From Candidatus Uhrbacteria bacterium (lineage in GTDB: Bacteria; Patescibacteriota; Patescibacteriia; UBA9934; GWF2-40-263): DNA of 64,000 nt. The stretch's first letter is position 1. The number at the start of each line of letters is the position of its first letter. The translations under genes and the position numbers were made by a program. Shown here one piece after another: positions 3,805 to 32,524 of this stretch. The stretch lies in contig JACRJU010000013.1 of NCBI GenBank assembly GCA_016219925.1, positions 180,472 through 244,471 of the forward strand. Reading direction: 5' to 3'. The notes beneath the pieces were generated by a model. The model saw nothing but the letters and a program-made list of their open reading frames with translations, ran no database searches and was not told where the DNA came from.

Positions 3805-4677
3805 CTACCAGTAGCGCCGACGGAACTCCGTCGCGTCATGGTGGTTCAGGCCCGTGTTGAGGTCGGCGATGAGCAGGCCCATCAGCTGACCGAACAGGAC
3901 CATCTGCGGTCCGTTCTGTCCGCTCTTGAAAGCTTTGACCAGATCGATCGCCCGCGCGAGCTTGACGCGCGCGGCTTCCTTGGCGACGACATCGCCGTTG
4001 CGGAATGCGCGGTGTGCCTCGATGATCGCGTCGCGGTTCGACGGCCAGTTCGAGTCATGGTTCACGATCTCGCGCAGGCCGATCGTGATGGGATCCGACG
4101 CCCGAGCAGGGGGGGTCAGTGGCGGTTCGCGTCGATCCTCATCTCGAGGCTTTCCGTCGCGTCGGTCGTCCCGACGCGGTTGCTCGCTCGTGGGCTGGCG
4201 CTGTCCTGATGGAGCCGTTGCTCCTGGCGCGGTGCGCGGAGCTTGTACCACAGGAGCGCGCGGCGCGCTCTGCGAAGGGGGAAGCAGCACGGTACGCGCC
4301 CCGCCTCCGCTTGGAGCCGCAACTGCCGCCGCAACGAGATCGTCGAAGTTCGTCACACTCGCTGCGGGTTCTTCGACCGCTTCGACCGGGAGAGCTTCTA
4401 CGATCACCGGCTTGGCGACGTCGACGGTGACCTTGGCCTCCAGCTTGGCCGCGTAGGCCGCCAAGAGGACTTTGGCTGAACCGTCCGTCAGGCCTTCAGC
4501 GTAGAAGGTGGGCCTGCGAGTGAACTCGCCGACGTTGTCGATGGTGTTAGGGTTCAGACCCCCAGCCTCGTCGTTGGTGGGCTCGGGGCTGTCCCCGAGG
4601 GCTTCGACAGCCTCCTGCGAGGCCGTCGCGTCAGGGTTGGGCCCGAAGAGGGCCTCAAAGGCTTCGTTTCTGGTCAA
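3805..4677 (-). CDS. Hypothetical protein with a low-complexity Ala/Pro/Glu-rich middle and a conserved C-terminal domain (high-GC island 1)
   Basis: GC3-rich coding frame with a diverse amino-acid composition, while the opposite-strand ORFs are Arg/Ser/Ala junk. The likely start is the TTG at 4677, 6 nt after AGGAGG; the ORF tool's longer start at 4728 lies inside the -10 box. Confidence 0.55.
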   Translation of the reverse strand: MTRNEAFEALFGPNPDATASQEAVEALGDSPEPTNDEAGGLNPNTIDNVGEFTRRPTFYAEGLTDGSAKVLLAAYAAKLEAKVTVDVAKPVIVEALPVEAVEEPAASVTNFDDLVAAAVAAPSGGGARTVLLPPSQSAPRAPVVQAPRTAPGATAPSGQRQPTSEQPRRDDRRDGKPRDEDRREPPLTPPARASDPITIGLREIVNHDSNWPSNRDAIIEAHRAFRNGDVVAKEAARVKLARAIDLVKAFKSGQNGPQMVLFGQLMGLLIADLNTGLNHHDATEFRRRYW

Positions 4678-4718
4678 GGGCCACCTCCTGATTAAGGGTT
4701 GTCCAGTCGAAGGAAGCG

Positions 4719-4797
4719 AATTTATCACAAAAACTCTTATTTGTCAATAAAAAATGACAAGCGAAAGCTTGACATTTTTAGGGAAATCAGCTAATAT
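4719..4797. promoter_or_regulatory. Back-to-back divergent sigma70-like promoters of island 1
   Basis: Plus strand: TTGACA (4769-4774), 17 nt, TAATAT (4792-4797). Minus strand: TTGACA (revcomp of 4742-4747), 17 nt, TAAATT (revcomp of 4719-4724). Confidence 0.55.
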
Positions 4798-4905
4798 CGT
4801 CCCTCACGTTCGTGTCGTTTTCAACGATTCGAACATGGGGAAAGTTTCTCAACCCGCCGCTAAGCGCGGCCAAAACGCCGCGTGAGCGGCAAGGAAGGAG
4901 GCCAG

Positions 4906-6537
4906 ATGGCCACGCAGCAGTCCCAGTCCGATACCGGTGCCTTCGGCACCGACGACGTCATCGAGCGCCTGGGCGTTCGCGTGCTCGAAGAGGGCGAGAG
5001 CCCTGCCTCCGGCACGACCGCCTTGGTGCAGTTCCGGGCCGCCCCGACCCTCAAGGCGATCGGGCGCGACCTCGCCCGCGTCGCGGCCACGACCTCCATG
5101 GGCAACCGGGAGGGCGCCCGCCGCCGGTGGCTGGACCGCATGGTCATGGTCTCCGGCCCGGATGGCAAGCCCTCGGACGTCCCGCTCTTTGTGAGCGTGA
5201 CCTTCACGGGCAAGCTCGTGACGGTCAAGGGCGTTCAGGACGTGGGGGTGAGCGCGGAGATGGAGCTCCCCGGCCTCGGCCGCGTGGAGATCCAGCCGCT
5301 CTTCACCGTCGGGATCGAGTACGTCGCCGTCAAGGAAGGCGTGCTCGTGCCCACGCGCTCCTTCACCGGCGCCCTGTTCGCCCCGAAGAGTGGCAAGGGT
5401 CCCGGCAAGTTCGTGCCCATCGACTTGGCCGACCCCCAGCTCATCGCGCGCTGGAACGGCATCGTCGAGCAGGGCAAGGCGCTCAACACCGACCACGGCA
5501 AGTGGCCGACGATCCCGGTCCTCGAGACCAAGATCGGCCGGCCCGGGCAGATGATCATCCCCTTCGCGCCCCGCTACCAGGTCAAGGAGACCTTCAACGA
5601 GCGCGGGCGTGACGGCAAGGAGCGCCAGAAGTCGATCTGGGTCATCGGGACCCGGTTCGGCAAGAAAGTGATCCTGGAAAGCCGGTCGCAGGCCCCGGCG
5701 GTCATCGACGCCAGCTCGGCAAAGCCGTTCGGCGATCTCGAGTTCGTCGTCCGTGAGGGCGAGAACTCCCTGATCGTCGTCCTGCGCGGCCGGCCCGGGC
5801 AGACGCCCCTGCCGGAGTCCATGGCGACCATCGAGCAGGCGAGCGACGGGGTGGACCCGTTCGCCGTCCTCAATCTGGACGTCATGCGCTACGAGCCCGG
5901 CCGGGCGCACACCTTCGTGGAGCGGTGCATGCAGCTTCCGCTCAACTCCGCCAATCCGCTCTACAAGAGCGCGATCAACCTCGGGCTCATCGTCGCGGGC
6001 CAGTCCACGGCGGTCGTGAGCAACCAGCTCCAGGCGCTGGCTGACGAGGCCCAGCGCAAGGCCAGGGAGTTCTGGGACGCAGCCATGAAGGCGACGTGGG
6101 AGGCCTTCAGGGTCTACACGTTGCCGGAGATCGGCGACTGCCTGCAGGGCAAGCCCCTGGGGCAGGTCATCGACCGGCTCAACCCTGAGGACGCGGCCGC
6201 GGCGTGGATCACCAGCCACGTCGAGGGCGAGTACTCGCACACGAGCCCGTTTCACCGGGTCCTGCGCGAGCGCGTCCTGCGTGCCGTCGCCCGCAAGGCC
6301 GGCTACCGCGACCCGGCCCCCGAAGGCCCCGCGGCCGACGAGCAGGCCAAGCCCGCCAAGTCCGAGGCCCCGCAGAACAGCGGGACCAACGGCGCGACCA
6401 GCCCCGTCGCCGCGGACACCGCCGAGGCCCCCAAGCCGAAGCGGACCCCGCGCAAGCCGACCAAGGGCGCCAAGCCCAAGGCCGCCGCGCGCAAGACCGC
6501 CAAGCCCAAGGGCTCCCAGCCCGCACTGCGGCAGTGA
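4906..6537 (+). CDS. Hypothetical 543-aa protein with a Lys/Pro/Ala-rich basic C-terminal tail (high-GC island 1)
   Basis: AAGGAGG at 4893-4900 precedes the ATG at 4906 by 5 nt, and the frame is very GC3-rich. The tail (PKPKRTPRKPTKGAKPKAAARKTAKPKG) resembles histone H1 / HU-tail repeats. No family was recognised for the body. Confidence 0.6.
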   Translation: MATQQSQSDTGAFGTDDVIERLGVRVLEEGESPASGTTALVQFRAAPTLKAIGRDLARVAATTSMGNREGARRRWLDRMVMVSGPDGKPSDVPLFVSVTFTGKLVTVKGVQDVGVSAEMELPGLGRVEIQPLFTVGIEYVAVKEGVLVPTRSFTGALFAPKSGKGPGKFVPIDLADPQLIARWNGIVEQGKALNTDHGKWPTIPVLETKIGRPGQMIIPFAPRYQVKETFNERGRDGKERQKSIWVIGTRFGKKVILESRSQAPAVIDASSAKPFGDLEFVVREGENSLIVVLRGRPGQTPLPESMATIEQASDGVDPFAVLNLDVMRYEPGRAHTFVERCMQLPLNSANPLYKSAINLGLIVAGQSTAVVSNQLQALADEAQRKAREFWDAAMKATWEAFRVYTLPEIGDCLQGKPLGQVIDRLNPEDAAAAWITSHVEGEYSHTSPFHRVLRERVLRAVARKAGYRDPAPEGPAADEQAKPAKSEAPQNSGTNGATSPVAADTAEAPKPKRTPRKPTKGAKPKAAARKTAKPKGSQPALRQ

Positions 6538-6600: not shown

Positions 6601-6738
6601 CAGTGGGGGCCCGGCTGGCCATTTCCCCATCCGTGCTCGCAAGCTGCGCGCGGATGGGGACCCCATGGCCGCCTCCCCACTGGCCGTGACAGCTTATCCA
6701 TTCGCAAAGCGACTCTATTGCCCGAGCTTGTCGAGGGC
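6601..6738 (+). repeat. GC-rich extended-hairpin repeat, family 1, copy 1
   Basis: About 90% identical to 13221-13358. It forms nested stems: CCAGTGGGG/CCCCACTGG, GCTGGCCAT/ATGGCCGCC and CCCCATCCG/CGGATGGGG. Confidence 0.8.
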
Positions 6739-6844
6739 TGCTCTTGCAATGCGGCGTAGTCCATGCCTCCTCGACAAAATCAATCATTCATCACCGAACG
6801 AGATGGACAACGTGAAGATGAAAGGAGGAGGAACTATCCGTTGG

Positions 6845-6914
6845 TGCGATAATATGAACACAAGGGAATCCATAGGGTTCCTCCCGTGATTCCCCTGTAT
6901 TCATATCATCGCAC
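6845..6914. other. Nested inverted-repeat element upstream of the atp promoter
   Basis: The outer stem GTGCGATAATATGAA/TTCATATCATCGCAC encloses the inner stem GGGAATC/GATTCCC. Confidence 0.4.
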
Positions 6915-6952
6915 CCCAAGGGGAAGCTGTTCCTTGATATTTTTTATCCGCA

Positions 6953-6981
6953 TTGACCTTTTTCTCTGTGCCGCGTATACT
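6953..6981 (+). promoter_or_regulatory. Putative promoter of the ATP synthase operon
   Basis: TTGACC (6953-6958), 17 nt, TATACT (6976-6981). Confidence 0.5.
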
Positions 6982-7016
6982 TTCCGCGCTTGTTGACCGT
7001 TGCGCACAAGACGCTT

Positions 7017-7262
7017 ATGAGCACCGATGCCCCTTATTACCGACTTGCGATGAAGATTTTCGTAGACTTTACCGGAACCATCGCGATCCCGGTGGTTGTC
7101 GCAGCGCTTGCAGGCAAATGGCTTGATGAGCGTTATGGCACATCGCCGTGGTCTCTCATCGGCTTGTTCGCTCTTGCGCTGATTTTTACGGGCATGACGG
7201 TCGTCAAAAAAGCGTATCGGTATCGGAAAGAATTTGAATCCATTTCACACAACGCTAAGTGA
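7017..7262 (+). CDS. Small two-helix membrane protein, possibly an AtpZ/AtpI-like ATP synthase accessory protein
   Basis: An 81-aa hydrophobic protein immediately upstream of atpB, in the usual AtpI/AtpZ position. Confidence 0.4.
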   Translation: MSTDAPYYRLAMKIFVDFTGTIAIPVVVAALAGKWLDERYGTSPWSLIGLFALALIFTGMTVVKKAYRYRKEFESISHNAK

Positions 7263-7266
7263 TTGT

Positions 7267-8115
7267 ATGAGTTTCGCCATTCCTCCCGTTGCGGCTGAAC
7301 CGGTTCTCTCTATCGGAACATTTCCCATCACGAATACCATGGTGAACGCCTGGATCGCGGTTGTTTTTTTCCTGCTCATTTCTCTTGCGGTTCGTTCTCG
7401 AAAAGCGCGCGTTCCAAAAGGGTTGCAAAATATTGTGGAGTCTGTGGTGGAGTTTCTTTTGCGCGAAGTCGAAAAAGTAACAGGGGATAAAAAGAAAGCT
7501 CGGCAGTTTTTGCCGATCGTCGGCACGATCTTTCTTTTCATCCTCTTTTCTAATTGGATCGGATTGTTTCCGGGAACCGGTTCCATTGGAGTCTGGGGGA
7601 TGGTTCATGGGGAAGTGGAATTGATTCCCTTACTTCGTCCAGCCGCCAGCGATCTGAATCTCACCCTTGCGATCGCTTTGTTTGCGATCATCACCTCACA
7701 CGTCATGGCTTTGTTGTCGATCGGACCGTTAAATCACATCAGCAAATTCATCAACATCCGCGGAGTTCTGCGTTCGTTGCGCAACGGACCGATGGCTGTG
7801 ATCGTAGCGATTATCGAATTGGGTGTGGGCTTTATCGAAATCGTTGGTGAGATTGCCAAAGTGGTCTCGCTCTCGCTTCGGTTGTTTGGAAACATTTTTG
7901 CCGGCGAAGTTTTGATGACGGTTATGCTTGGATTGCTCGCCTATGTCGTGCCGATTCCGTTTATGTTTTTGGAGCTTCTGGTCGGAGCGGTTCAAGCAAC
8001 GGTTTTTGCGATGCTGACGCTTGCGTATTTGGTGGTGGCGACGGAAGATCACGGTGGCCACGAAGAAAATACTCACGGTGGCCACGAAGAAGTTCTCGTT
8101 TCAACTCATCCATAA
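7267..8115 (+). CDS. atpB: F0 ATP synthase subunit a
   Basis: Conserved LSLRLFGNIFAGEVL region with the essential Arg. The C-terminus carries a His-rich tandem repeat. Confidence 0.85.
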   Translation: MSFAIPPVAAEPVLSIGTFPITNTMVNAWIAVVFFLLISLAVRSRKARVPKGLQNIVESVVEFLLREVEKVTGDKKKARQFLPIVGTIFLFILFSNWIGLFPGTGSIGVWGMVHGEVELIPLLRPAASDLNLTLAIALFAIITSHVMALLSIGPLNHISKFINIRGVLRSLRNGPMAVIVAIIELGVGFIEIVGEIAKVVSLSLRLFGNIFAGEVLMTVMLGLLAYVVPIPFMFLELLVGAVQATVFAMLTLAYLVVATEDHGGHEENTHGGHEEVLVSTHP

Positions 8116-8355
<240 letters not shown>

Positions 8356-8528
8356 AAGTTAGCCGCAAGTAATAGGTGGCAAGTATCAAGTCGAAAACTG
8401 ACAGACTTCTGCAGAGGTCACTTGATACTTCGGACGTGTTACTCGTTTTGCCTATGTCCTCACCACAACAGACAACAGAACTTGCTCGAGGAGCCGCTCA
8501 AACCGTTGAAGCAACCGGCGGTCTTGGC

Positions 8529-9008
8529 ATGCTCGGCATCAATGCCAAAATTCTTTTGGCTCAATTGGTCAACTTTCTTATTGTGCTTCTGGTTTTGTGG
8601 CGATGGGTATATCGGCCCATGGTGAAATTGCTTGATGAACGCAGTGCGCGCATCGAAGCCAGCATGAAGCATGCCGATGAGATTGATGCGAAAATGGCGG
8701 CGATAGAAAAAGAACAACAGCGATTGGTCGGACAAGCCAAAACAGAAGCCGCGGCCATTTTAGAATCCTCTCGACAAGATGCTGAACGTCGAAAAAAAGA
8801 AATGATTGATGCGGCGAAGCAGGAGGTGCAGAGTGTTGTCGCTCAAGGAAAGGATCAGCTTCAAGCGCAAAAACACCAGATGATTCACGAGGCAAAAGAG
8901 GAGATTGTGGAGATCGCCATTCAGGCGGCCCAGAAAGTTTTACAGGAACAGATTGATGAGAAAATCTCTCATAAACTTTCCGAGCGTGTGATCAAACAAC
9001 TTTCTTAA
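8529..9008 (+). CDS. atpF: F0 ATP synthase subunit b
   Basis: One N-terminal transmembrane helix followed by a long charged coiled coil. The start is set at MLGINAK by analogy with canonical b subunits (the ORF tool starts at 8376). Confidence 0.7.
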   Translation: MLGINAKILLAQLVNFLIVLLVLWRWVYRPMVKLLDERSARIEASMKHADEIDAKMAAIEKEQQRLVGQAKTEAAAILESSRQDAERRKKEMIDAAKQEVQSVVAQGKDQLQAQKHQMIHEAKEEIVEIAIQAAQKVLQEQIDEKISHKLSERVIKQLS

Positions 9009-9011
9009 GGT

Positions 9012-9395
9012 ATGCGCGATATCCTTATTCAACTCGCCAGCGAGCTTGTGGAACGGCTGGAGAAAAAAACGGCTGATGCCGATCAGGTTGCGGATGCCGT
9101 CATTCGGTTGTTGGCACAGCGTGGTCAGCTCTCCTTGGTTCGCGAACTTCCCGAAGCCATCGAGCGCGTGTGGAAAGAGCGATATGGGGCGGCAACGATT
9201 TCCGTTCAAAGCGCCCATCCGCTCACCGCGGCCCTGCGCAAGCAAATCGAGGCACTTGCTCCGGGGGCGGAACTGCGCGAAACCGTTGATACTAAATTGA
9301 TCGGGGGAATGCGCCTGCGCATTGACGATCGCATCATTGATGGATCTATCGCCGGTCATCTTGATCAACTACGCACGCAGTGGAAAGCGAGCTAA
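9012..9395 (+). CDS. atpH: F1 ATP synthase delta subunit (short, 127 aa)
   Basis: The C-terminal motif [26 protein letters not shown] is diagnostic of delta/OSCP. The N-terminal domain is shortened. Confidence 0.75.
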
Positions 9396-10912
9396 TGTTC
9401 AATCCTATGGCAACAAAAACAGAAATTTTGGACGCTCTCAAAAAATCGCTCGAGCATTTTCACGCGGAAGCAAAGGAAGAGCATGTCGGCACCGTTATCG
9501 CGGTGGGCGATGGCACGGCGCGTATGACCGGGCTTTCCCAAGCACGCGCTTCCGAAATGCTTGAATTTCCCGGAGGCATCTACGGCGTCGCTTTGAACCT
9601 GGAGCAAGACGGGGTTGGCGCCGTTATTTTGGGTGATGCTTCTGCCATCAAAGAAGGCGACACAGTGAAATCAACCGGCCGTATTCTTTCCATTCCCGTT
9701 TCTGATGCGGTGCTCGGTCGTGTGCTTGATCCTTTGGGAAATCCGATTGACGGCAAAGGAAAATTAACGGCAACGAAGTTTTATCCGATTGAAAAAATCG
9801 CGCCGGGCGTGATGACGCGTAAAGGCGTTGGCGTGCCTTTGCAAACAGGAATTAAGGCGATTGATTCGATGATTCCGATCGGCCGCGGCCAGCGCGAGCT
9901 CATCATCGGGGATCGTCAAACCGGTAAGACCGCTATCGCCATTGATACGATCATCAACCAAAAAGGATTGGGGGTGAAATGTATTTATATTGCGGTCGGA
10001 CAAAAAGAATCGAAGATTGCGAAGATCGTCGCGCGCCTCGAGGAGTCCGGTGCTATGGAATACACCACGGTGGTGGTGGCTGGCGCGTCCGATCCAGCTT
10101 CGCTTTCTTACATCGCGCCATTTGCCGGATGCACCATTGGAGAATATTTCATGGAAAAAGGAGAAGATGCACTTGTCATTTACGACGATTTGTCCAAACA
10201 GGCCTGGGCCTACCGCGAAATTTCGCTTTTGCTTCGCCGCCCGCCGGGTCGCGAAGCCTATCCCGGCGATGTGTTTTATCTTCACTCACGATTGCTTGAG
10301 CGCGCGGCTCGTTTGAATGAAGAGAACGGCGGCGGATCGCTCACAGCGCTTCCCATCATTGAAACGCAAGCCGGCGATGTCTCGGCCTACATTCCAACAA
10401 ATGTCATTTCTATTACCGATGGACAGATTTATCTGGAATCCGATTTGTTTTATCGCGGGATTCGTCCGGCGCTCAATGTGGGATTGTCTGTTTCCCGCGT
10501 CGGTTCTTCGGCGCAAACCAAGGCCATGAAAAAAGTGGCGGGAAAATTACGCTTGGATCTCGCGCAATTCCGCGAACTCGAAGCGTTTGCCCAGTTCGCA
10601 ACCGATCTTGATCCTCAAACGCGCGCGCAGATCGAGCGCGGCCGTCGCACCACCGAACTGCTCAAACAGCCTCAATATCAACCGATGCCATTTGAACAAC
10701 AGGTCACGGTGCTGTTTGCGGTAACTCAAGGGTTGATCGATCAGATTCCTGTTGACCAAATGACCGTTTGGGAAAAAGCGTTCCACGCGTATATGCTTTC
10801 TTCAGGGGCTGAAACGCTTAAGAAATTGCGGGAAGAGAAGGAAATCACCGATGAGATTGAGGTCTTGTTGAAAAAGGATATTGCGAATTTTAACGAAACA
10901 TTCACTTCATAA
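9395..10912 (+). CDS. atpA: F1 ATP synthase alpha subunit
   Basis: Walker A GDRQTGKT and strong global similarity to AtpA. TAATG overlaps the atpH stop. Confidence 0.9.
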
Positions 10913-10918
10913 TTTCCT

Positions 10919-13175
<2,257 letters not shown>

Positions 13176-13220
13176 ACCGGTCTATAATAATCATCAAAGC
13201 GGGTCCTGTCGCACGCCGGC

Positions 13221-13358
13221 CAGTGGGGGCCCGGCTGGCCATTTTCCCATCCGTGCTCGCAAGCTGCGCGCGGATGGGTGCCCCATGGCCGCCTCCCCAC
13301 TGGCCGTGACGGCTTATTCATTCGCAATGCGACTTTATTGCCTGAGCCTGTCGAAGGC
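13221..13358 (+). repeat. GC-rich extended-hairpin repeat, family 1, copy 2
   Basis: About 90% identical to 6601-6738, with the same orientation and nested stems. Confidence 0.8.
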
Positions 13359-13470
13359 AATGACGATCCCTCCGACACGGTTTTTGTCAGAACCACTGGT
13401 CTCGCAGTTTCTCCTTTCGTTTCTCTTTATCCCCCGAGCTTGTCGAGGGGGGTGCACGTAGCATCTGAAA

Positions 13471-13541
13471 GCGATTTGTAACCATGTCGGAGGGAACGAC
13501 GGCGATGAGTCCGTCGGCCCGGAGACATGGTTACAAATCGC
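13471..13541 (-). repeat. Structured hairpin repeat, family 2, copy C (inverted orientation)
   Basis: An 18-bp stem (GCGATTTGTAACCATGTC / GACATGGTTACAAATCGC) closes a loop that is the reverse complement of the conserved loop. Confidence 0.8.
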
Positions 13542-13555
13542 TTCCCATTCAACAT

Positions 13556-13993
13556 ATGCCTCTCTCGCTCAAAATTGTGACCCCGGAACGCGTGGTCTTT
13601 GAAGACACGGTTGATTCGGTGACGGCGACGACACAGATGGGTGAAATCACCATTTTGCCGCATCATATTCCCCTTGTTGCGAATCTTCAGGCGGGCGAAC
13701 TTCGGGTTCGATCCAACGGGGACGAGCAATTTTTGGTGGCGTCGACCGGTTTTTTGGAAGTGCGGAGCGGTAATGAAGTGGTGATTTTAGCGGATACCGC
13801 TGAACGGGTGGAAGAATTAGAACTTGAAAAAATCGAAGATGCGCGCGAACGGGCTCGTCAGCTGCTTGAAGAAAAACGTCACATCGATGATGTGGCTTTT
13901 GCCGATGCCGCAGCCGTGTTAGAGCGCGAATTAGCGCGCTATCGCGTGGCCATCAAACGAAAAAAATACCGCGATGTCGGTAAGACAAGCTAA
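13556..13993 (+). CDS. atpC: F1 ATP synthase epsilon subunit
   Basis: MPLSLKIVTPERVVFEDTVD matches the beta-sandwich N-terminal domain plus a helical C-terminus. The ORF-track N-terminal extension runs through the repeat and is rejected. Confidence 0.8.
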   Translation: MPLSLKIVTPERVVFEDTVDSVTATTQMGEITILPHHIPLVANLQAGELRVRSNGDEQFLVASTGFLEVRSGNEVVILADTAERVEELELEKIEDARERARQLLEEKRHIDDVAFADAAAVLERELARYRVAIKRKKYRDVGKTS

Positions 13994-13998
13994 CTTCT

Positions 13999-14790
13999 AT
14001 GTCTTTTGAAACTATGAGTATGGAGCACGAACACGAAGCTTTTGAAAAAGAAAAATCCTGGAAAGATCAAGACGCCATGATTCAGCAAATTCTGCAAGAG
14101 GGCATGCAGGCATACGTTACCGAATTAGAGGATGCCGAACAGGCTTTTGAAACCAGCGAGCACACCCTCTGTTGTATTGATGAAGGGGTTCCCGCGGGTG
14201 ATATGCGAAGCGCTGGCTCCGGGATCTTACTTGTAGGAGCCGATCGCGCGGCGTTTATCGAAGAACTGAAAAAGGCTGGAGTGAAAGAAGTCACAAGCCA
14301 TGTCGGTTGTGGAGCCGCGGCGCTTTATCGTGAACAAAGGGGACTGACCGATCAGACCGTTGACGACGTGGCAATGGAAGGAGCGCGGCGTATGGCTGAA
14401 GAACTCGGGGTTCCATATAAGGGACACATTAACCAGCTTAGACGTCCCAAAGAATTTCATCATGCCCGTGTCGTGTATGTGGATGGAACAGGTGTCTTCA
14501 ATCCGGACAGCGTTAAAGGTTTGCCACAGGGGTTCGTGGTCAGCGAGGCGTATATGACATCCACGCAGGCCGCTTCAGAGGTTGGTCTTGCGGCGAGCAT
14601 TGCTCTGGGAGATCATGGTTTTGGGAAAAAGTTTACAAATGAGTCGCCGTTGTTGGTCGTTTTGGTTGGGGATGAATTTTCCGATGAACTGGTTGGTGAG
14701 CTTCAAAAAACTTTGCGTGACAAACCGATCAAAATGGAAGTCTGGAAGCGTCCAGTGAAACAAGAAGTTGAACTTCCGAAGGCCGCATAG
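13999..14790 (+). CDS. Hypothetical protein, host-GC paralog of the two island-2 proteins (C-x-D / HxxCGAA motif family)
   Basis: Starts 5 nt after atpC. Carries LCCIDEG, SAGSGILLVGAD and SHVGCGAAALY, which align with the motifs of the 14876-15490 and 15694-16230 products. Confidence 0.55.
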   Translation: MSFETMSMEHEHEAFEKEKSWKDQDAMIQQILQEGMQAYVTELEDAEQAFETSEHTLCCIDEGVPAGDMRSAGSGILLVGADRAAFIEELKKAGVKEVTSHVGCGAAALYREQRGLTDQTVDDVAMEGARRMAEELGVPYKGHINQLRRPKEFHHARVVYVDGTGVFNPDSVKGLPQGFVVSEAYMTSTQAASEVGLAASIALGDHGFGKKFTNESPLLVVLVGDEFSDELVGELQKTLRDKPIKMEVWKRPVKQEVELPKAA

Positions 14791-14808
14791 GCCTTCTTTT
14801 TTTTTCTC
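14778..14808 (+). terminator. Intrinsic terminator closing the atp operon
   Basis: GAAGGCC-GCATA-GGCCTTC followed by T12. Confidence 0.75.
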
Positions 14809-14837
14809 TTGACGGTTATCTTCACTTCAGGTAATAT
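14809..14837 (+). promoter_or_regulatory. Promoter of island-2 gene C
   Basis: TTGACG, 17 nt, TAATAT. Confidence 0.5.
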
Positions 14838-14875: not shown

Positions 14876-15490
14876 ATGGGACGATTGTCCACGTTTGACA
14901 GGGAAGTGATTGGCATCCTTCGAGAGGAGAACGTCCTGCAAGACGGCGAAGCGCACCTGCTTGAGTCGCCCACGGGTGTGATCGTGGTGGCCTGTTCGGA
15001 CGGCGACCAGATGCCGGACATCTTCGACCACTATCGGGACCTCGCGCGGGCGGGGGAATGGCCCGTGCGCCCGCACATGCTCTGCCTGCACGGTGGAGCC
15101 ATGCTGATCGCGCCCGACTGCCCGCTCTACCGCGCGTTCCACGTGGACGAACTGCTCCTTCAGCACATCCGCGAGGCCGAGGGACTCGACCTCAAGGGGA
15201 TCGGCACGGTCGTGCTCTACGTGCATGCCCCCTGTGGCGCGGCCGGCTTGGCGAACCTGACGGTCGTCAACCAGCTCGACATGCTCATGCGCGCCAAGGC
15301 TCGCGTCAAGGCGATCGATATGACCAATAGGGTCATCTGTTTCGTCCACGTCGACTACGGCAACGAGGGCAACGGAAGCCATAGACGTCGCACGTACTTC
15401 ATGTCCGCGGCGGGCTGGGCCGAGTTCTGGAACCGTCAGGGCCACGAGTTGTGGGGGCGCTTACTAGGTTTTCCTGTGTCGGCGAGTTGA
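14876..15490 (+). CDS. Hypothetical protein, paralog family member C (high-GC island 2)
   Basis: Motifs VVACSDGD, HGGAMLIAPD and HAPCGAAGL. GC3-rich frame. Confidence 0.6.
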   Translation: MGRLSTFDREVIGILREENVLQDGEAHLLESPTGVIVVACSDGDQMPDIFDHYRDLARAGEWPVRPHMLCLHGGAMLIAPDCPLYRAFHVDELLLQHIREAEGLDLKGIGTVVLYVHAPCGAAGLANLTVVNQLDMLMRAKARVKAIDMTNRVICFVHVDYGNEGNGSHRRRTYFMSAAGWAEFWNRQGHELWGRLLGFPVSAS

Positions 15491-15504
15491 ACAAACACCT
15501 CCTG

Positions 15505-15531
15505 ACCGTTCCTGCGAAGGGCGGTTTTTTT
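15505..15531 (+). terminator. Putative terminator between the island-2 paralogs
   Basis: Imperfect GC hairpin ccgttcctgcgaagggcgg followed by T7. Confidence 0.4.
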
Positions 15532-15619
15532 ATATCATCCAGATGTCATCCCAAGCGAGTTTGAAGAGAGCCGAAGGATTTTTCTAAATGGCTGAAAAAG
15601 AGTTATCAGCCCATCGGGA

Positions 15620-15648
15620 TTGACAAGATTGTGTAAAGTGCGTAAACT
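15620..15648 (+). promoter_or_regulatory. Promoter of island-2 gene D
   Basis: TTGACA, 17 nt, TAAACT, then AGGAGG 6 nt before the ATG at 15694. Confidence 0.5.
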
Positions 15649-15693
15649 CGTCGAGAGCTGTGCACCAACCGCACAGTCTAACGGAGGAGAATC

Positions 15694-16230
15694 ATGACCT
15701 TGCAAGATCTCGTGTCTCGTGGTGTGCTCGTGCCTCGGACGGTGCGCGAGAAGAACACCAAGCCGGTCGTCGTCGTCTGCGACAGCGAGACGGTCATCGA
15801 GGGGCTGTGCGACAAGCGCGTTTCTCGGCGCGTGATCGCGAACGTCGCCGGGGTGCTCGTCGGCACCCCCGAGAGCGATCTCCAGTCCGAGATCGGCGTC
15901 GATCCGGACAAGGTTCTGTACGAACCTCTCCAGATTGCCTTCTCCAACGGGCACCGGTACATCCTGCTGGTCGTAAACCCGGACGCGGTCTGGGGGATCA
16001 TGAGTGAGATGACCAACGTCGAGCTCATTGACCACATGATGCAGGTCGCTCGCGAGATCCGGGAGCGGATGCCCCACTTCGAACTCGACTGCGTCGTCGT
16101 CAAGGGAACGAACTACGGGGAGGTCTACACGGTCAACCCCGAGGCTTGGACGCGGTTCTACGCGACGTACGAGACGCGCGTGCTCGGTCGCCAGGATGAC
16201 GGGCTGGAGCTCGTCCCCGCCACCGTCTGA
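15694..16230 (+). CDS. Hypothetical protein, paralog family member D with degenerate His/Cys motif (high-GC island 2)
   Basis: Aligns with gene C (VVVVCDSE, VAGVLVGTPE, YILLVVNPDAVWG, CVVVKGTNYGE) but lacks the HxxC pair. Confidence 0.6.
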   Translation: MTLQDLVSRGVLVPRTVREKNTKPVVVVCDSETVIEGLCDKRVSRRVIANVAGVLVGTPESDLQSEIGVDPDKVLYEPLQIAFSNGHRYILLVVNPDAVWGIMSEMTNVELIDHMMQVAREIRERMPHFELDCVVVKGTNYGEVYTVNPEAWTRFYATYETRVLGRQDDGLELVPATV

Positions 16231-16344
16231 CGCCTCGCGTCTTCACTCATGGCACCTTCGCGACTTCTTCTACTGCACCCGTCGTCCTCCGGGTGCCTTT
16301 TTTATATTTTTTTTAATAGTCTCGCCAGCTAATCATTCATGAAA

Positions 16345-16415
16345 CAGATTTGTAACCATGTCTCTGGGCCAACGGACTCATCGCCGTTGTTCCCTCCGAC
16401 ATGGTTACAAATCTG
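16345..16415 (+). repeat. Structured hairpin repeat, family 2, copy D
   Basis: An 18-bp stem (CAGATTTGTAACCATGTC / GACATGGTTACAAATCTG) closes the conserved loop. It sits between convergent genes. Confidence 0.8.
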
Positions 16416-16437
16416 TTTTATAAAAAAACATCCATTC

Positions 16438-16980
16438 TCACGGATGCAGAATGCGGATGCGCAGACGGATGTGACTGCGCTTGGGGTTGCCGATGTAGAT
16501 CGAGTCGTAGTCCTGGAGCTCGACGTACACGTCACGCATCAGCGGCCGGGCCTTGGGTGCGCCGGTGCGCCGATGATACGTCGTGTGGCGGTCGGACATC
16601 GTACGCAGGCAAGGTTTGTCGTCCCGGCGTTCGATCACGGCCTGGATGCGCGAGAGCGTACGCTCTGCGTTCAGGCCAACCAGGAGCGGGAGCAGATCGA
16701 CTTCTGGCACGATGGGAGGAACGGTGGTGTCGTCCTTGCGACCGATGCGAAGAGGCGGGTCTCCCGCCGATTCCAGATCGAAGGTAAACGAGATCGGCAC
16801 ATCGCCTGCAACCAGCTCTCGATCACCCACCTGTTCAACGATGATCTCCATGGTGGCAACGGGCTGTTGCACAGCGACGATCGCCTTTGGTTGCGACGGG
16901 GGGGACAGGGGACTCCCATCCTGATCGCACACGAGCGTGCCGTTCTTGAAGTGCTTGCCGCATGAGGGGCAGGTGATCAT
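16438..16980 (-). CDS. Zinc-ribbon plus FHA-domain protein (high-GC island 3)
   Basis: N-terminal CPSCGKHF...C ribbon. FHA signatures: IGRKDD, LSRIQAVIERR, the HTTYHRRTG beta-turn and L.DYDSIYIGN. The ATG overlaps the vWA stop (ATGA). Confidence 0.6.
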   Translation of the reverse strand: MITCPSCGKHFKNGTLVCDQDGSPLSPPSQPKAIVAVQQPVATMEIIVEQVGDRELVAGDVPISFTFDLESAGDPPLRIGRKDDTTVPPIVPEVDLLPLLVGLNAERTLSRIQAVIERRDDKPCLRTMSDRHTTYHRRTGAPKARPLMRDVYVELQDYDSIYIGNPKRSHIRLRIRILHP

Positions 16981-18254
16981 GGCTTCTCCTCATCCGTTCC
17001 ACTGTGTTGCGGAAAGTGCATGGTGTGAACCACGCTGACCGAACCGCCCGTGAGCGTTTCGCTTCCGCGATCGACTGCGGCGCGGCTGTGCGTTCCACGC
17101 GCGAGGTGATCGACCATGGTGCGCAAGGCAGTGGCTGTGGCATGGTCGCCGGCACGTTCGTAGACGACCGAGGCGCCATTGAGGTCGCCGCGATCAGCCA
17201 TCTCCGCCCCGGCCATGTGTTGGGCGACCCTGATCACTTCTGGGTCGGGTTCGGTCTGTGCGGCCTCGTCCCACGTGAACGTTGCGTCGACAGAGAGGTC
17301 GCAGGTGAACGAATTGCCGCTCGAACCGGCTTCCGTGCCGGCAAGCGACAGCTTCAGGATTGGGTGAGTTCCGGGTTCCGGTGTCCCGACCTCGATCTCG
17401 AAGTAGTACTGCTGACCCCGCGCGCGATCGAGCGCGCCCGACGCATCGGTAAACGCGCCGTCTTGGCCGACGTTGAGCGGGCGCTGCTGGGGCATGAAGC
17501 GGGCCGCACGGATGAGGCTCGTCCCTTGCGAGATCTGTCCGGAGACGACCAGTCCTCGGACTCCGACCCCGCGCAGGAAGCCGACCTCGGAGCGGAGGTG
17601 ATCGAGCAGTTCGTCTGCTTGCATCACATGCTTGAGGAACGACCCGTTGCCGGCGCGAACCGCGAGTTGCTGCAGCAGGGCGAAGTTGTAGTCACCGCCG
17701 GTGCCGTAGACGAGCATCGGCAAGCCGTAGTCGCGCGCCCGATCGGCGCTCTTGACCAGTTGCTGGTGGTCTTGGTGGACGTTCACCGTGCTCTCGCCGT
17801 CGGTGAACAGGACGAGCCGCGTCTCGAAGCGGATATCGGGGCGTGTGATGGCTTCCTCGACGCCGCCGGAGATGAACGTGTCGCCTTCCGCCTTGATGGC
17901 CGCGATGAGAGCGCGCGCGTGACTGTGAACCTTATAGTCCATGTTCGTGCTGGGCAGATCAAGATCGTGGAAGTCGGCGAACGTGATGAGCGCGAGCCGA
18001 TCCTTCGGACCAAGATCGCCGATCAGCTCACGCAGGGCAAGCCGCACGGCCTCGATCTTTCTGCCCTCCATTGAGCCGGAACGGTCGATGACCAGGCGCA
18101 GGTCGATCGGCGGAGCGTTGGGGTTGGTGGTCGCGGGACGAATGTCCACGAACACCGGCACGACAACAGGACCCCCGTCGATGTGTGTGACTTCACGACC
18201 CAGATGCACGGTTACATGCACGTGAGTCAACTTGTGAACGAGCTGGGTACCCAT
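16977..18254 (-). CDS. von Willebrand factor A (vWA) domain protein with MIDAS motif (high-GC island 3)
   Basis: LVIDRSGSMEG (DxSxS), LITFADF and LFTDGES. GGAGG lies 5 nt before the ATG. The minus-strand promoter is TTGACA, 17 nt, TAACGT. Confidence 0.7.
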   Translation of the reverse strand: MGTQLVHKLTHVHVTVHLGREVTHIDGGPVVVPVFVDIRPATTNPNAPPIDLRLVIDRSGSMEGRKIEAVRLALRELIGDLGPKDRLALITFADFHDLDLPSTNMDYKVHSHARALIAAIKAEGDTFISGGVEEAITRPDIRFETRLVLFTDGESTVNVHQDHQQLVKSADRARDYGLPMLVYGTGGDYNFALLQQLAVRAGNGSFLKHVMQADELLDHLRSEVGFLRGVGVRGLVVSGQISQGTSLIRAARFMPQQRPLNVGQDGAFTDASGALDRARGQQYYFEIEVGTPEPGTHPILKLSLAGTEAGSSGNSFTCDLSVDATFTWDEAAQTEPDPEVIRVAQHMAGAEMADRGDLNGASVVYERAGDHATATALRTMVDHLARGTHSRAAVDRGSETLTGGSVSVVHTMHFPQHSGTDEEKP

Positions 18255-18342
18255 GGGAACCTCCGTGGAGTGGGTGCACGGACGTTAGGTCATTTTAGCC
18301 TTTTTGTCAACCCGTTGATGAGCCGGTATACTGAACGTCTTG

Positions 18343-21309
18343 ATGGATACAGCGCTTCTTGATCAACTCAATGACGAACAAAAAAAGGCCGTCACGCACA
18401 AGGAGGGCCCGCTTTTGATTGTGGCTGGAGCCGGAACAGGGAAGACGACAGTCATTACCAAGCGCATCGCCTGGTTGATTGACCAAGGTCTTGCCAAGCC
18501 CGAAGAAATTCTCGCGCTGACCTTTACCGATAAGGCGGCTGGCGAAATGGAAGAACGGGTCGATCTGTTGTTGCCTTATGGTTATGTTGATCTTCAGATT
18601 TCGACATTCCATGCTTTTTGCGAGCGACTCCTGCGTGACTTTGGAACGCAAATCGGACTCTCGCACCAATTTGAAGTGTTGGATGAACTGGAAACCTGGT
18701 TGCTCGCTCGTCAAAAACTGGATCGTTTTGATCTTGATTATTACCGGCCGCTCGGCAATCCCACAAAATATCTTCGCGGTTTGCTTGCGCATTTTTCTCG
18801 AGCAAAAGATCATCACATCACCCCGGAAACGTATTTGGCTTTTGCCGAGTCGCTTCAGGCAGATGCCGACCATTTCCAAGCGGATGGCTCGTCTGACATG
18901 GAAGCCCAGCGGATTTTTGAATTGGCCACAGCATATCAAACATACCAACAGGTGCTCCTTGAACAAGACGCGCTCGATTTTGGTGACCTCCTGCTCTATA
19001 CCCTCAAGCTTTTACAGGAGCGTCCGAATGTTTTGCAACAGCTTCGGGCGCGCTATCGATTTATTTTGGTTGATGAGTTTCAAGACACCAACCCCGCGCA
19101 GTATGAACTCGTTCGCCTCTTAAGCGAGCCGCGAAACAATCTCACGGTTGTGGGCGATGATGATCAGGCCATTTATAAATTCCGCGGAGCATCCATTGAA
19201 AACATTTTGCGATTTGAGTCCGATTATCCAAAAGCGGCGCGTGTCGTCCTCACGCAAAATTACCGAAGCGTGCAGGCGATTTTGGATCGAGCGCACACGT
19301 TTATCCAAATGAACAATCCGGATCGGTTGGAAGCGCGCTCCGGCGGCTCGCTGTCCAAGCGATTGGTTTCCAATCAGCCGGGCGCTGGTCTCATCGAGCA
19401 TCTGCATTTTGCCACGAGTGAGGAAGAAGTCCGTGAGGTCATCAAAAAAATTCTCGCGCTCAAAGCCGCTGATCCAGAAACGCTCTGGAGCGATATTGCC
19501 GTTTTGGTTCGGTCTAACGGAGCGGGCGCGGATTTTGCCCATGGGTTCGAACGTTCAGGGATTCCGTTTCAATTTCTCGCGTTGTCTGGATTATATCGCA
19601 AGCCATCCGTGGTCGATCTAATGTCACTTCTTCGGGTGATCGATCAGCCGCACGATAGTCCGAGTCTGTATCGGGTGCTGTTCTTGCCGATGTGGAACAT
19701 CCCTGCCGAAGTCCTCATCGAACTCAGTCGTTTGGCCACACGCAAAGGAAAGAGTCTCTTTGAAACGATAGCTCTTGCCGGGACGCTTGGCGCTCTTCCT
19801 CTCGAGCCCATCGTTCGACTTCGAGAAATCTCGCATCTGCTCCTGGAACTTTCCAATGAAGCCAAAACCAAAACGGCTTCGGAACTTTTTGTGCGAGCGT
19901 TGAAACAGACGAAGTATATTGACGTCATTACCACTCTTGATGATCAGAAGAAAAAAGAAATTTTCGGGTACTTGCAACAGATGCTTGAGCGGGTCAAGTC
20001 GTTTGAAAAACGAAGCCCCTTGCCGTCGCTTCATGAATTTCTCGCGGAGTTTCGTCATGAACAAGACGCCGGCGAAGAGGGTTCGCTTTCTGTAGACATA
20101 GAAGCGGGACCGGACGTGGTGCGCCTGATGACCGTGCATGCCGCCAAAGGACTTGAGTTCAAGTATGTCTTTGTTGTGAATCTCGTTGATCGCCGTTTTC
20201 CCACTCAACGACGATCCGATGCCATCGCTCTTCCGTCAGAACTTTTGTCTCCAAAAGACGCAGAGGTAGATGAAGCCGCGTTTCATTTGCAGGAAGAGCG
20301 TCGGTTGTTCTATGTCGCAATGACGCGCGCAAAAGTGGGATTATTTTTCACCTCAGCCGAGGACTATGGAGGCGCCCGATCACGCAAGCTTTCCCGATTT
20401 TTGATTGAACTCGGATACGAAAAGCCGTCGACAACCGAAGAGACTCTCATCGTATTGATTGATGATGAGCGTGAACGCGCCGAGACCTCCACGCAAGATT
20501 TGAGCGCCTATGTGCCCAAGCAATTTTCCTTTACTCAACTGGCGGCTTTTCAAACTTGCCCTTTGCAATATAAGTTCGCCCATCTTTTACGCGTGCCCGT
20601 GCTGGGACGTTGGTCGCTTTCGTTTGGTAAGACCATGCACAATACTCTGCACCGGTATTTTACCGCTTGGATGGAACGCACGGGCAAACGACAAGTTGGA
20701 CTGTTTGATGGCGTCCGGGTAAAGACACCCAGCGACAACGGTTCGCAAGCATTGCCGGTTTCTCTTGAAGAGTTGTTAGAGATGTACCGGGCTTGTTGGA
20801 TTGACGAGTGGTATCCCACGGATGAGGCGCGCGAAGAATATCGCAAACGGGGAAAGGAACAATTGACGCGCTATGCTAAATCTTTTGAAGATGAGCGACC
20901 CGTTCCTGTGGCGCTTGAACAAGGATATACTTATAAGATTGGTGACGTAATTTTGAAGGGGCGGATTGATCGCATTGACGCTTTTGAAGATGGGGTGGAG
21001 ATCATCGATTACAAAACCGGCACACCAAAAGTTCTTAAACAGCTCGAGCGCGAGGACAAAGAGCAACTGTGGTTGTATCAACTCGCGGTTCGCGATGTGT
21101 TGAAACTTTATCCAAAGAAGTTGACGTTCGTTTATCTTGAAGATCAATCGCGCGTTTCGTTTCTGGGGAGCGATGAGGATCTTTTGCGTCTTCAGGAAGA
21201 GGTTGTCGAACGCGTAAAACGTATTCGTGAGAGTGATTTTCCTCCCAATCCGGGTCGGCATTGTCGTTACTGTGACTTCGCTGACATTTGTGAGTATCGA
21301 GAGCTGTAG
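18343..21309 (+). CDS. UvrD/PcrA-family helicase fused to a C-terminal Cas4/AddB-like PD-(D/E)xK nuclease with a Cys cluster
   Basis: Walker A AGAGTGKTT and UvrD motifs. The C-terminal IDYKTG...QLWLYQ and CRYCDFADICEY resemble the RecB-nuclease Fe-S motif. The promoter TTGTCA, 17 nt, TATACT ends 10 nt before the ATG, so the transcript is near-leaderless. Confidence 0.85.
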   Translation: MDTALLDQLNDEQKKAVTHKEGPLLIVAGAGTGKTTVITKRIAWLIDQGLAKPEEILALTFTDKAAGEMEERVDLLLPYGYVDLQISTFHAFCERLLRDFGTQIGLSHQFEVLDELETWLLARQKLDRFDLDYYRPLGNPTKYLRGLLAHFSRAKDHHITPETYLAFAESLQADADHFQADGSSDMEAQRIFELATAYQTYQQVLLEQDALDFGDLLLYTLKLLQERPNVLQQLRARYRFILVDEFQDTNPAQYELVRLLSEPRNNLTVVGDDDQAIYKFRGASIENILRFESDYPKAARVVLTQNYRSVQAILDRAHTFIQMNNPDRLEARSGGSLSKRLVSNQPGAGLIEHLHFATSEEEVREVIKKILALKAADPETLWSDIAVLVRSNGAGADFAHGFERSGIPFQFLALSGLYRKPSVVDLMSLLRVIDQPHDSPSLYRVLFLPMWNIPAEVLIELSRLATRKGKSLFETIALAGTLGALPLEPIVRLREISHLLLELSNEAKTKTASELFVRALKQTKYIDVITTLDDQKKKEIFGYLQQMLERVKSFEKRSPLPSLHEFLAEFRHEQDAGEEGSLSVDIEAGPDVVRLMTVHAAKGLEFKYVFVVNLVDRRFPTQRRSDAIALPSELLSPKDAEVDEAAFHLQEERRLFYVAMTRAKVGLFFTSAEDYGGARSRKLSRFLIELGYEKPSTTEETLIVLIDDERERAETSTQDLSAYVPKQFSFTQLAAFQTCPLQYKFAHLLRVPVLGRWSLSFGKTMHNTLHRYFTAWMERTGKRQVGLFDGVRVKTPSDNGSQALPVSLEELLEMYRACWIDEWYPTDEAREEYRKRGKEQLTRYAKSFEDERPVPVALEQGYTYKIGDVILKGRIDRIDAFEDGVEIIDYKTGTPKVLKQLEREDKEQLWLYQLAVRDVLKLYPKKLTFVYLEDQSRVSFLGSDEDLLRLQEEVVERVKRIRESDFPPNPGRHCRYCDFADICEYREL

Positions 21310-31045: not shown

Positions 31046-32524
31046 ATGCCAGATGAATCTGCTTCGCGCCTCGAACGTCTTGAGCGTTTACAAGCCGCGA
31101 GTGTTGACCCGTATCCATCAACGACTCAACGAACGCATACCCTTCTGCAAGTACGAGAGCACTTTGAGGTTCTTGAGAAATCAGCCGAGCGTATGACTAT
31201 TGTCGGTCGCATCCGACTCATTCGCACACATGGTGGACTGACATTTCTTCAGATTCAAGATATCTCAGGCGTAATGCAGTTAGCTCTCAAGCGTGATGTT
31301 TTGGGTGAACAAGCCTATCATTTTTTTCATGAAACCATCGATCTGGGAGATTTTTTGCAATGTACAGGAACGGTTTTTCTGACAAAGAAGGGGGAACAGA
31401 CGCTTCTCGTCGATCAGTATGTTTTGCTTGCGAAAGCTCTGGAGCCTTTACCAGAAAAATGGCATGGTCTGACGGATGTCGAAGCGCGTTATCGTCAACG
31501 TGAACTCGATCTCCTTTCTCATCCGGAGGTCAAAGAGCGATTTTTGAAACGATCAAAACTGATCTCATCCATTCGTTCGTATTTGGATAATCATGGGTTC
31601 ATTGAAGTTGAAACACCGATTTTGCAGCCTATCCCCGGAGGCGCAAGTGCCCGTCCGTTTGTCACGCACCACAATGCGCTCGATGCGGATTTGTATTTGC
31701 GCATCGCCCCCGAACTGTATTTGAAACGCTTGTTGGTTGGAGGATTTGAAAAGATTTACGAGATTGGAAAAGTGTTCCGTAATGAAGGAATTGACTACGC
31801 TCATAATCCTGAATTCACGATGTTGGAGTGCTACTGGTCCTATGTGTCGGGCCGTGATAACTACATTGATTTTTTGGAGGATTTTTTGCGCACGATTATG
31901 CGAGCGACCATTGGGTCCTTGCGCGTGCCGTACGGGGAAGGGGAGATCGATTTTTCGGGTATGTGGCCGCGTAAAACTTTTCGTGAAGCGATTCTTGAAA
32001 GCTGTCAAATCGACATCGATGATTATCTAGATGAGAATGCTCTAAAAGCCGAAGTCAAAAAGAAAAAGCTCGATGTGGATTTTTCCGAATGTGTTGGGAT
32101 CGGCGAGTGTTACGATCAACTCTATAAAAAAACCGCGCGGGAAAAACTGGTTGAGCCGGTTTGGGTGTTTGATTACCCCCTCGAACTCAAGCCTCTGACG
32201 AAAGCCAGTCCGGATGATCCAAGCAAAAGCGCTTCCGTGCAGTTGGTGGTTCACGGCATGGAGGTTGTCAACGCGTACTATCACGAATTGAACGATCCTA
32301 TCGATCAACGTAAACGGTTTTTGGCTCAAGAAGCTCTGCGCGAGCGCGGGAGTCAAGATGCGCAATATGTTGATGAAGACTTTTTGCGTGCGCTTGAACA
32401 CGGCATGCCACCCACAAGCGGCATGGGGCTTGGGATTGATCGTTTTGTCGCTTTTTTGACCGGGGCCCCAAACTTGAAGGAAGTGATTTTGTTCCCGACC
32501 CTTCGTCCGAAGGGAGATTTGTAA
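31046..32524 (+). CDS. lysS: Lysyl-tRNA synthetase (class II)
   Basis: OB-fold N-terminus. Class II motifs: LRIAPELYLKRL, FRNEG and GLGIDR. Confidence 0.9.
   Translation: MPDESASRLERLERLQAASVDPYPSTTQRTHTLLQVREHFEVLEKSAERMTIVGRIRLIRTHGGLTFLQIQDISGVMQLALKRDVLGEQAYHFFHETIDLGDFLQCTGTVFLTKKGEQTLLVDQYVLLAKALEPLPEKWHGLTDVEARYRQRELDLLSHPEVKERFLKRSKLISSIRSYLDNHGFIEVETPILQPIPGGASARPFVTHHNALDADLYLRIAPELYLKRLLVGGFEKIYEIGKVFRNEGIDYAHNPEFTMLECYWSYVSGRDNYIDFLEDFLRTIMRATIGSLRVPYGEGEIDFSGMWPRKTFREAILESCQIDIDDYLDENALKAEVKKKKLDVDFSECVGIGECYDQLYKKTAREKLVEPVWVFDYPLELKPLTKASPDDPSKSASVQLVVHGMEVVNAYYHELNDPIDQRKRFLAQEALRERGSQDAQYVDEDFLRALEHGMPPTSGMGLGIDRFVAFLTGAPNLKEVILFPTLRPKGDL

Follow-up and report, generated by a model that had tools for sequence, protein, structure and literature searches.

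Proteins A and B, encoded at the 3′ end of the F1Fo ATP synthase (atp) operon of an Uhrbacteria genome, are highly diverged members of the β-carbonic anhydrase structural superfamily. The neighboring protein C is, as judged by profile comparison, a B-derived paralog that lacks the His/Cys ligands. Four β-carbonic anhydrase-like lineages, namely A, B, C, and the Pfam family Pro_CA_2 (here also called D), recur at the 3′ ends of the atp operons of Patescibacteria, often in pairs. We consider the classification of A and B, which combines evidence from fold, homology, operon structure, and gene linkage, to be very probably correct. The link between β-carbonic anhydrase-like genes and the ATP synthase operon in Patescibacteria is apparently undescribed. 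Our literature searches found nothing on carbonic anhydrase-like genes in patescibacterial atp operons, nothing on PF20393 (Pro_CA_2) or on bicarbonate and the ADP inhibition of F1-ATPase, and no support, experimental or other, for a coupling of carbonic anhydrase to bacterial ATP synthase.

The analyzed stretch of 64,000 nucleotides, referred to as the window, contains the following features.

6990..13993, + strand: F1Fo ATP synthase operon (atpI-like, atpB, E, F, H, A, G, D, C), identified from open reading frames and the Pfam matches ATPase_gene1, ATP-synt_A, and ATP-synt_DE_N
8137-8355, + strand: c-subunit, H+-type by its appearance (motif AFAEAIAIY, without Gln or Ser/Thr ligands)
13484..13993, + strand: atpC, epsilon subunit (Pfam PF02823, E=1e-25)
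13999..14790, + strand: protein A, 263 aa, diverged β-carbonic anhydrase-fold protein with C59-x-D61 and H101-x-x-C104-G-A-A
14778..14805, + strand: intrinsic terminator, 7-bp GC-rich stem (hairpin 14778-14796) and T9
14809..14837, + strand: promoter-like site TTGACG-17-TAATAT, 5′ of B (consensus match only)
14876..15490, + strand: protein B, 204 aa, single-domain β-carbonic anhydrase fold with C40-S-D42-G-D44-Q, R65-x-H67, and H117-x-P-C120-G-A-A
15504..15535, + strand: terminator-like hairpin (15504-15526) and T-run, 3′ of B
15620..15648, + strand: promoter-like site TTGACA-17-TAAACT, 5′ of C (consensus match)
15694..16230, + strand: protein C, 178 aa, degenerate B paralog (pseudo-enzyme), from hhalign and a homolog at locus L070
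16275..16305, + strand: terminator-like hairpin (16275-16296) and T-run, 3′ of C
16438..16980, − strand: Zn-ribbon protein, first partner of the VWA gene, with homologs in the same slot at loci L011 and L071
16977..18254, − strand: VWA-domain protein (Pfam VWA, E=7e-15; phmmer 2e-64 and 3e-61 to the slot homologs of L011 and L071)
18340..21309, + strand: UvrD/PDDEXK helicase-nuclease, the conserved downstream edge of the variable slot

The TAA stop codon of atpC ends at position 13993 and the ATG of A is at 13999, which leaves a gap of 5 nt. The stop codon of A is overlapped by the hairpin at 14778-14796, which is followed by nine thymines, and this arrangement identifies A as the last cistron of the atp transcription unit. 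The co-transcription of A with the atp operon, predicted from the gap and the terminator, is supported. The original prediction had anticipated both features of the A gene, and it had placed the open reading frames of A, B, and C exactly. With promoter-like hexamers and a hairpin-plus-T terminator of their own, B and C each resemble an independent single-gene unit. Na+-site residues are missing from the rotor c-subunit; the ATP synthase is therefore probably proton-driven.

Several additional features of the locus were observed. The translation of atpC probably starts near position 13556 (MPLSLKIV), which would give a protein of 145 aa, and homologs have 145-154 aa. With this start, the atpD-atpC spacer (13176-13555) would be approximately 380 nt long, compared to 3-115 nt in relatives. 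The spacer has a GC content of 0.585 and several inverted repeats, and it has no Rfam match; Rfam gave no matches anywhere in the window. A palindromic hairpin element of approximately 75 nt occurs in two copies in opposite orientations: the atpD-atpC spacer holds the first (13469-13543), and the second lies between the genes of C and the Zn-ribbon protein (16343-16417). The outer stem GATTTGTAACCATGTC is the same in both copies, and a lone arm is located at 32515. The RNA of either copy folds with an energy of about −50 kcal/mol (z = −9 and −11), and the element looks REP- or MITE-like. The C-terminal stretch of the Zn-ribbon protein, LRIGRKDD...LSRIQAVIERRD, resembles an FHA signature by eye and is common to the L011 and L071 homologs, but Pfam gave no match to an FHA domain in this protein.

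Fold, homology, and predicted zinc site of A, B, and C

Homolog searches retrieved 68 relatives of A and 51 of B, all annotated as hypothetical, and the homologs bearing names all belong to Uhrbacteria or other Patescibacteria. Family A comprises 862 clusters at 50% identity (E≤1e-3). No Pfam or NCBIfam model exists for either family, and scans of the single proteins and of all alignment members against both databases returned no family at threshold. PF00484 (Pro_CA) gave no match at E≤10 for any A or B member, and profile searches against PDB sequences returned only noise. Thus, A and B have no sequence-level membership among the β-carbonic anhydrases of PF00484, such as E. coli Can, M. thermoautotrophicum Cab (1g5c), and Aspergillus CafD (6lac).

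The AlphaFold models of A and B are confident (pLDDT 95.2 and 93.3, respectively), and the fold search found the α/β fold of β-carbonic anhydrases in both proteins. A Foldseek search of the PDB with protein A returned nothing significant (best E=0.048, TM ~0.2). The two best structural matches of A are two-domain (pseudo-dimeric) enzymes, the carbonic anhydrase of Porphyridium purpureum (1ddz) and the carboxysomal CsoSCA (8thm), with 181-184 residues aligned, whereas single-domain carbonic anhydrases align over approximately 100 residues. The difference suggests that the C-terminal β-α-β unit of A may overlay part of a second repeat. CsoSCA pairs one catalytic domain with one ligand-less domain. 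Protein A differs from two-domain β-carbonic anhydrases in its length of 263 aa, as compared to 460-480 aa, and in having no carboxysome context. The hhalign comparison of the C-terminal half of A with its N-terminal half and with B detected no internal repeat; a 98.8% match in the half-versus-half comparison was discarded as trivial since the two sub-alignments overlap.

The original prediction described A, B, and C as three tandem paralogs and proposed pairwise and profile alignment as a check. Pairwise BLASTP gave no match between A and C or between B and C, and a single local match at HxxCGAA between A and B (E=0.026), which is not significant. Profile comparison was more informative. C matched the B profile with 88% probability as a single sequence, and a two-sequence C profile, which includes the homolog from L070 (positions 6658-7233, 31% identity, E=4e-25), matched it with 95.2% probability (E=2.7e-8, 169 columns). 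The L070 homolog surfaced only through its locus context, because a word-based search with C retrieved C alone. The full A and B profiles align weakly (22%, E=9e-4), and the catalytic half of A is collinear with B over 110 columns (hhalign, E=3.6e-4), pairing C59 with C40, D61 with D42, the Gly-rich strands with each other, H101 with H117, and C104 with C120. The subtype of A with a canonical catalytic dyad matched the B profile with 67% probability (E=5.3e-5). No direct relation between A and C was detectable by profile comparison. The description as paralogs therefore applies to B and C; A and B, as their profiles indicate, are remote superfamily relatives and not recent duplicates.

The connection to characterized enzymes was provided by E. 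coli Can, to which the canonical-dyad subtype of A aligned with 53% probability (E=1.3e-4, 178 columns). The hhalign matches of the full A and B profiles to Can were non-significant, but the motifs were still paired as expected: in both proteins, C-x-D aligns to C42/D44 of Can and H-x-x-C to H98/C101. The B profile matched a member of Pfam PF20393 (Pro_CA_2), a family of uncharacterized putative carbonic anhydrases, with 95-96% probability, whereas no sequence link was detected between A and Pro_CA_2. At the gathering threshold of 30 bits, window B did not match Pro_CA_2, and two of the 46 B members gave faint matches (E ~0.01). On this profile evidence, B is a relative of Pro_CA_2 rather than a member, and it is nearer to Pro_CA_2 than to A.

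The three motifs noticed originally are real and fall on invariant or near-invariant columns of the alignment of each family. In A these columns are C59, D61, E62, A72-G-S-G75, H101, and C104-G-A-A, and in B they are C40, D42-G-D-Q45, G73-G74, H117, and P119-C120-G; ligand conservation was counted over 45-128 A sequences and 46-88 B sequences. The zinc-ligand set of Cys, His, Cys, and Asp, arranged as C-x-D ... H-x-x-C-G, is present in A and B and absent from C. Protein C lacks H-x-x-C, as had been noted from the sequence, and the first cysteine is not kept in the L070 homolog. Across hundreds of divergent sequences the four ligand residues hardly vary, which is indicative of a working metal site, and A and B each hold a probable, predicted zinc site. 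The original interpretation of the Cys/Asp and His/Cys residues as a sign of common ancestry and of a probable zinc site agrees with the ligand conservation and the alignment to Can. The β-carbonic anhydrases had been set aside because of the ligand spacing; this has to be reversed, because the fold search and the Can alignment put the motifs on the zinc-ligand positions of these enzymes. We reject a coincidental origin of the motif matches in view of the fold, profile, and conservation evidence.

The Asp-Arg dyad (C-x-D-x-R), the arginine of which is conserved in characterized β-carbonic anhydrases, is not present in the window proteins. The corresponding sequences are C-I-D-E-G in A and C-S-D-G-D in B, so that the arginine is replaced by Gly63 in window A and by the invariant Asp44 in all B. 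Proteins lacking this arginine may be inactive or catalyze something else. Pro_CA_2 members keep C-x-D-x-R, which B never does, and the dyad is present in all the Pro_CA_2-like neighbors described below. Family A contains both a canonical C-x-D-x-R subtype (n=33) and a C-x-D-E-G subtype (n=95). Window A belongs to the latter and has R70 in place of the dyad arginine. Among the 83 distinct C-x-D-E-G sequences, 73 carry Arg or His at position 70, compared to 8 of the 32 sequences with R63 (odds ratio of 22 and Fisher p=1.6e-10, a statistic that ignores phylogeny). This covariation suggests that the basic residue was relocated rather than lost. Other conserved residues distinguish the two families from β-carbonic anhydrases: A keeps H154, D162, and GDHGFG, with H154, D162, and H206 being nearly universal, and B keeps D44-Q45, R65-x-H67, and K107.

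Recurrence at the ATP synthase operon

In their location at the end of the atp operon, A and B are unlike the characterized β-carbonic anhydrases. Of the 58 species-representative loci, 21 have A directly 3′ of atpC and in the same orientation, among them loci of Moran-, Falkow-, and Jacksonbacteria. Approximately 60% of A loci lack an atp operon within a distance of 8 kb, and clustering of the neighbors in these loci revealed no recurrent partner except the helicase and shadow open reading frames. The gene of B is near atpC in 15 of 35 metagenome loci: in nine of them B is downstream on the same strand without A in between, in one A lies between, and in five the genes are convergent. The A-B pair also occurs without an atp operon nearby (L007 and L080). 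In Uhrbacteria relatives, the order is atpBEFHAGDC, A, B, UvrD/PDDEXK helicase, and MreB.

Members of Pro_CA_2 adjoin atpC and B in other Patescibacteria. The gene just 3′ of atpC at locus L087 passes the Pro_CA_2 threshold (36 bits versus 30), and Pro_CA_2-like genes follow atpC or lie beside B or A in 13 loci, in the arrangements atpC-D-B on one strand, atpC-D with convergent B, and atpC-A followed by a D-like gene. At L070, the C homolog immediately follows B, which follows atpC. The presence of four separate β-carbonic anhydrase-like lineages after atpC in many bacterial lineages would be difficult to account for if no functional link existed.

Individual loci display further variation. 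In an Uhrbacterium (L009, 7001-14705), B is right after atpC, A is absent, and a group-4 [NiFe] hydrogenase- or Mrp-like cluster follows, containing Oxidored_q6, Proton_antipo_M, NADHdh, and Complex1_49kDa; the β-carbonic anhydrase-like gene thus sits between two proton-translocating machines. In Moranbacteria (L051, 8791-9804; also L052 and L058), atpC is followed by A with the canonical CSDGR and by a 337-aa Pro_CA_2-like protein, in which, by eye, the N-terminal repeat seems degenerate and the C-terminal half is intact (CMDYR, HQDCGY). Tandem A-A duplications are present at L036 (6992-8687) and L061 (7923-9731). One of the genomes with an A-A duplication bears the label Aenigmarchaeota, probably through an error of binning or labeling.

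High GC content of B and its neighbors

The genes of B, C, the Zn-ribbon protein, and the VWA protein have GC contents of 62-64% and GC3 of 0.75-0.87, compared to about 50% GC in the flanks. The values for B (63.4%, GC3 0.82) and C (63.1%, GC3 0.87) are below the approximately 66% estimated originally. The excess is not particular to the window. Over 32 distinct loci, B is richer in GC than the remainder of its locus by 0.073 ± 0.038 (Wilcoxon p=1e-6), the excess is above 0.03 in 28 of the 32 loci with host GC ranging from 0.41 to 0.59, and the GC3 of B is typically the highest in the locus. A has no such excess (+0.010). The high GC content of B is a family-wide trait and not a sign of recent foreign origin. 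The excess may stem from GC-biased gene conversion at a hotspot of recombination, from codon selection, or from exchange in which high-GC lineages are the source.

The original prediction treated B and C as part of an island of foreign GC content beside a resident homolog. A block from a high-GC donor spanning 14876-18254 (B, C, Zn-ribbon, and VWA genes) would account for the compositional step at its borders and for the promoter-like site and terminator that each gene has of its own. It also agrees with the incongruence of B with its flanking genes: between L003 and L005, AtpD is 96% identical, the helicase 87%, A 79%, and B only 51%, and window B resembles only the B of L001 (68%). Potential donors exist among high-GC Uhrbacteria (L012, genome-wide GC3 near 0.8), which could contribute DNA by homologous recombination. 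However, B follows A in at least ten other genomes, C follows B at L070, and the pair of VWA and Zn-ribbon genes occupies the slot between B and the helicase also at L011 (slot GC 0.64 versus 0.57 for the locus) and at L071, a 41%-GC genome in which the slot is at host GC (0.43). The spacers within the high-GC block of the window are AT-rich (0.42-0.47), the hairpin repeat is common to the block and the atp operon, and every named homolog of A and B is from Patescibacteria. Conserved synteny, recurrence of the slot, family-wide GC excess of B, AT-rich spacers, and the shared repeat argue together against a recent foreign island, which we regard as highly improbable, and in view of homolog taxonomy and synteny we reject a donor outside Patescibacteria. 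The replacement of the segment by the version from another Uhrbacterium is the sole plausible remainder of the island interpretation. Similarly, the suggestion that the family was acquired repeatedly does not hold as foreign acquisition. It survives in a softened form, since the incongruence of B would fit exchange among Uhrbacteria or a rapid turnover in this group, perhaps accompanied by GC-biased gene conversion, a plausible history in view of the sequence identities.

The interval between A/B and the helicase appears to be an insertion hotspot. At L015 (7991-11895), a 3.9-kb insertion with unannotated open reading frames of 442, 392, and 212 aa splits A from B. A second high-GC block is located 5′ of the atp operon of the window, so that high-GC genes are present on both sides of the operon. 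It consists of open reading frames of 307 aa (3805-4728, −) and 551 aa (4882-6537, +) with GC contents of 0.65 and 0.70 and GC3 of 0.74 and 0.95, respectively; neither has a Pfam match, and the tail of the 551-aa product is rich in Lys, Ala, and Pro. At L005, the public gene call took an antisense shadow open reading frame (6920-7534, −, 204 aa) instead of the real B-family gene (6878-7660, +), probably due to the high GC3 of B.

Possible function

The role that we consider most likely for these proteins is an enzymatic one. A and B would interconvert CO2 with HCO3− and H+ in the cytoplasm in a zinc-dependent manner. A is the last gene transcribed in the operon of a probably H+-type F1Fo ATP synthase, and B and C look like single-gene units right downstream. 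Co-expression with the ATP synthase would let the supply or buffering of protons, or the local concentration of bicarbonate, keep pace with proton translocation. A comparable pairing of carbonic anhydrase and proton ATPases is found in eukaryotic cells that secrete acid. The explanation as a whole, comprising β-carbonic anhydrase-type A and B with the zinc-ligand set, degenerate C, linkage to the atp operon, and a role in CO2/HCO3− conversion, is in our judgment reasonably probable. Its functional core, carbonic anhydrase activity coupled to the ATP synthase, is proposed tentatively. We speculate further that a catalytic β-carbonic anhydrase-like member and a variant or pseudo-enzyme partner may form a dedicated module that works physically or kinetically with F1Fo, but we consider such a module unlikely.

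The missing dyad arginine and the conservation of C as a pseudo-enzyme raise the alternatives of a non-catalytic role and of a different small substrate. A, B, and C may have retained the β-carbonic anhydrase fold to serve as sensors of CO2 or bicarbonate or as structural partners, for instance in regulating or assembling the ATP synthase, or as obligate hetero-oligomers with one active partner. The loss of the arginine from window A and every B agrees with this, as do the persistence of the ligand-free C in two genomes and the recurrence of unlike pairs (A+B, D+B, A+D, and B+C). There are also precedents, since the C-terminal domain of CsoSCA is ligand-less and the activity of LCIB is weak or none. 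A non-catalytic role is nevertheless rather unlikely, because the four ligands are nearly invariant across families that have otherwise diverged strongly, the complete catalytic set is present in many A and all D members, and the loss of R63 goes along with a basic residue at position 70. The altered second shell of the site, including D44, Q45, R65, and H67 of B and E62, H154, D162, and H206 of A, could instead indicate that A and B are active zinc enzymes acting on COS, CS2, or a cyanate-like compound, in which case the proximity to the atp operon would have no mechanistic meaning. We consider this very unlikely, since the four lineages share the post-atpC position in many bacterial lineages and no genes of sulfur or cyanate metabolism are present in the neighborhoods examined.

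The proposed carbonic anhydrase role has a parallel in the vectorial hydration of CO2 by the DAB (DabA/DabB) and cyanobacterial Cup/NDH-1 systems, in which a highly diverged β-carbonic anhydrase-like protein is reported to be linked genetically to a membrane machine that works with the proton-motive force (10.1101/476713, PMC13144422). The concept is alike, but the partner there is an Mrp/NuoL-type subunit, and here it is the ATP synthase operon. No membrane segments are evident in A, B, or C. No match to PF10070 (DabA) was found, and no PF00361 (DabB) gene adjoins A, B, or C in the window.

Two sizeable families that carried only hypothetical annotations can now be assigned a fold and, probably, a zinc active site, and the results show that the linkage of carbonic anhydrase-like genes to the ATP synthase is recurrent and phylogenetically broad in Patescibacteria. 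The possible relocation of an active-site residue from R63 to R/H70 and the conserved pseudo-enzyme partner are of interest for enzyme evolution. The GC excess of B, which is intrinsic to the family across many hosts, mimics horizontal transfer and calls for caution in island detection. Little is understood about the energy metabolism of Patescibacteria, and whether their F-ATPases make or consume ATP is under debate. If the proposed module exists, it would constitute an ATP synthase-linked coupling of CO2/bicarbonate to protons, similar in principle to DAB and Cup but built on a different machine, and it may matter for making or consuming the proton-motive force in fermentative Patescibacteria with reduced genomes.
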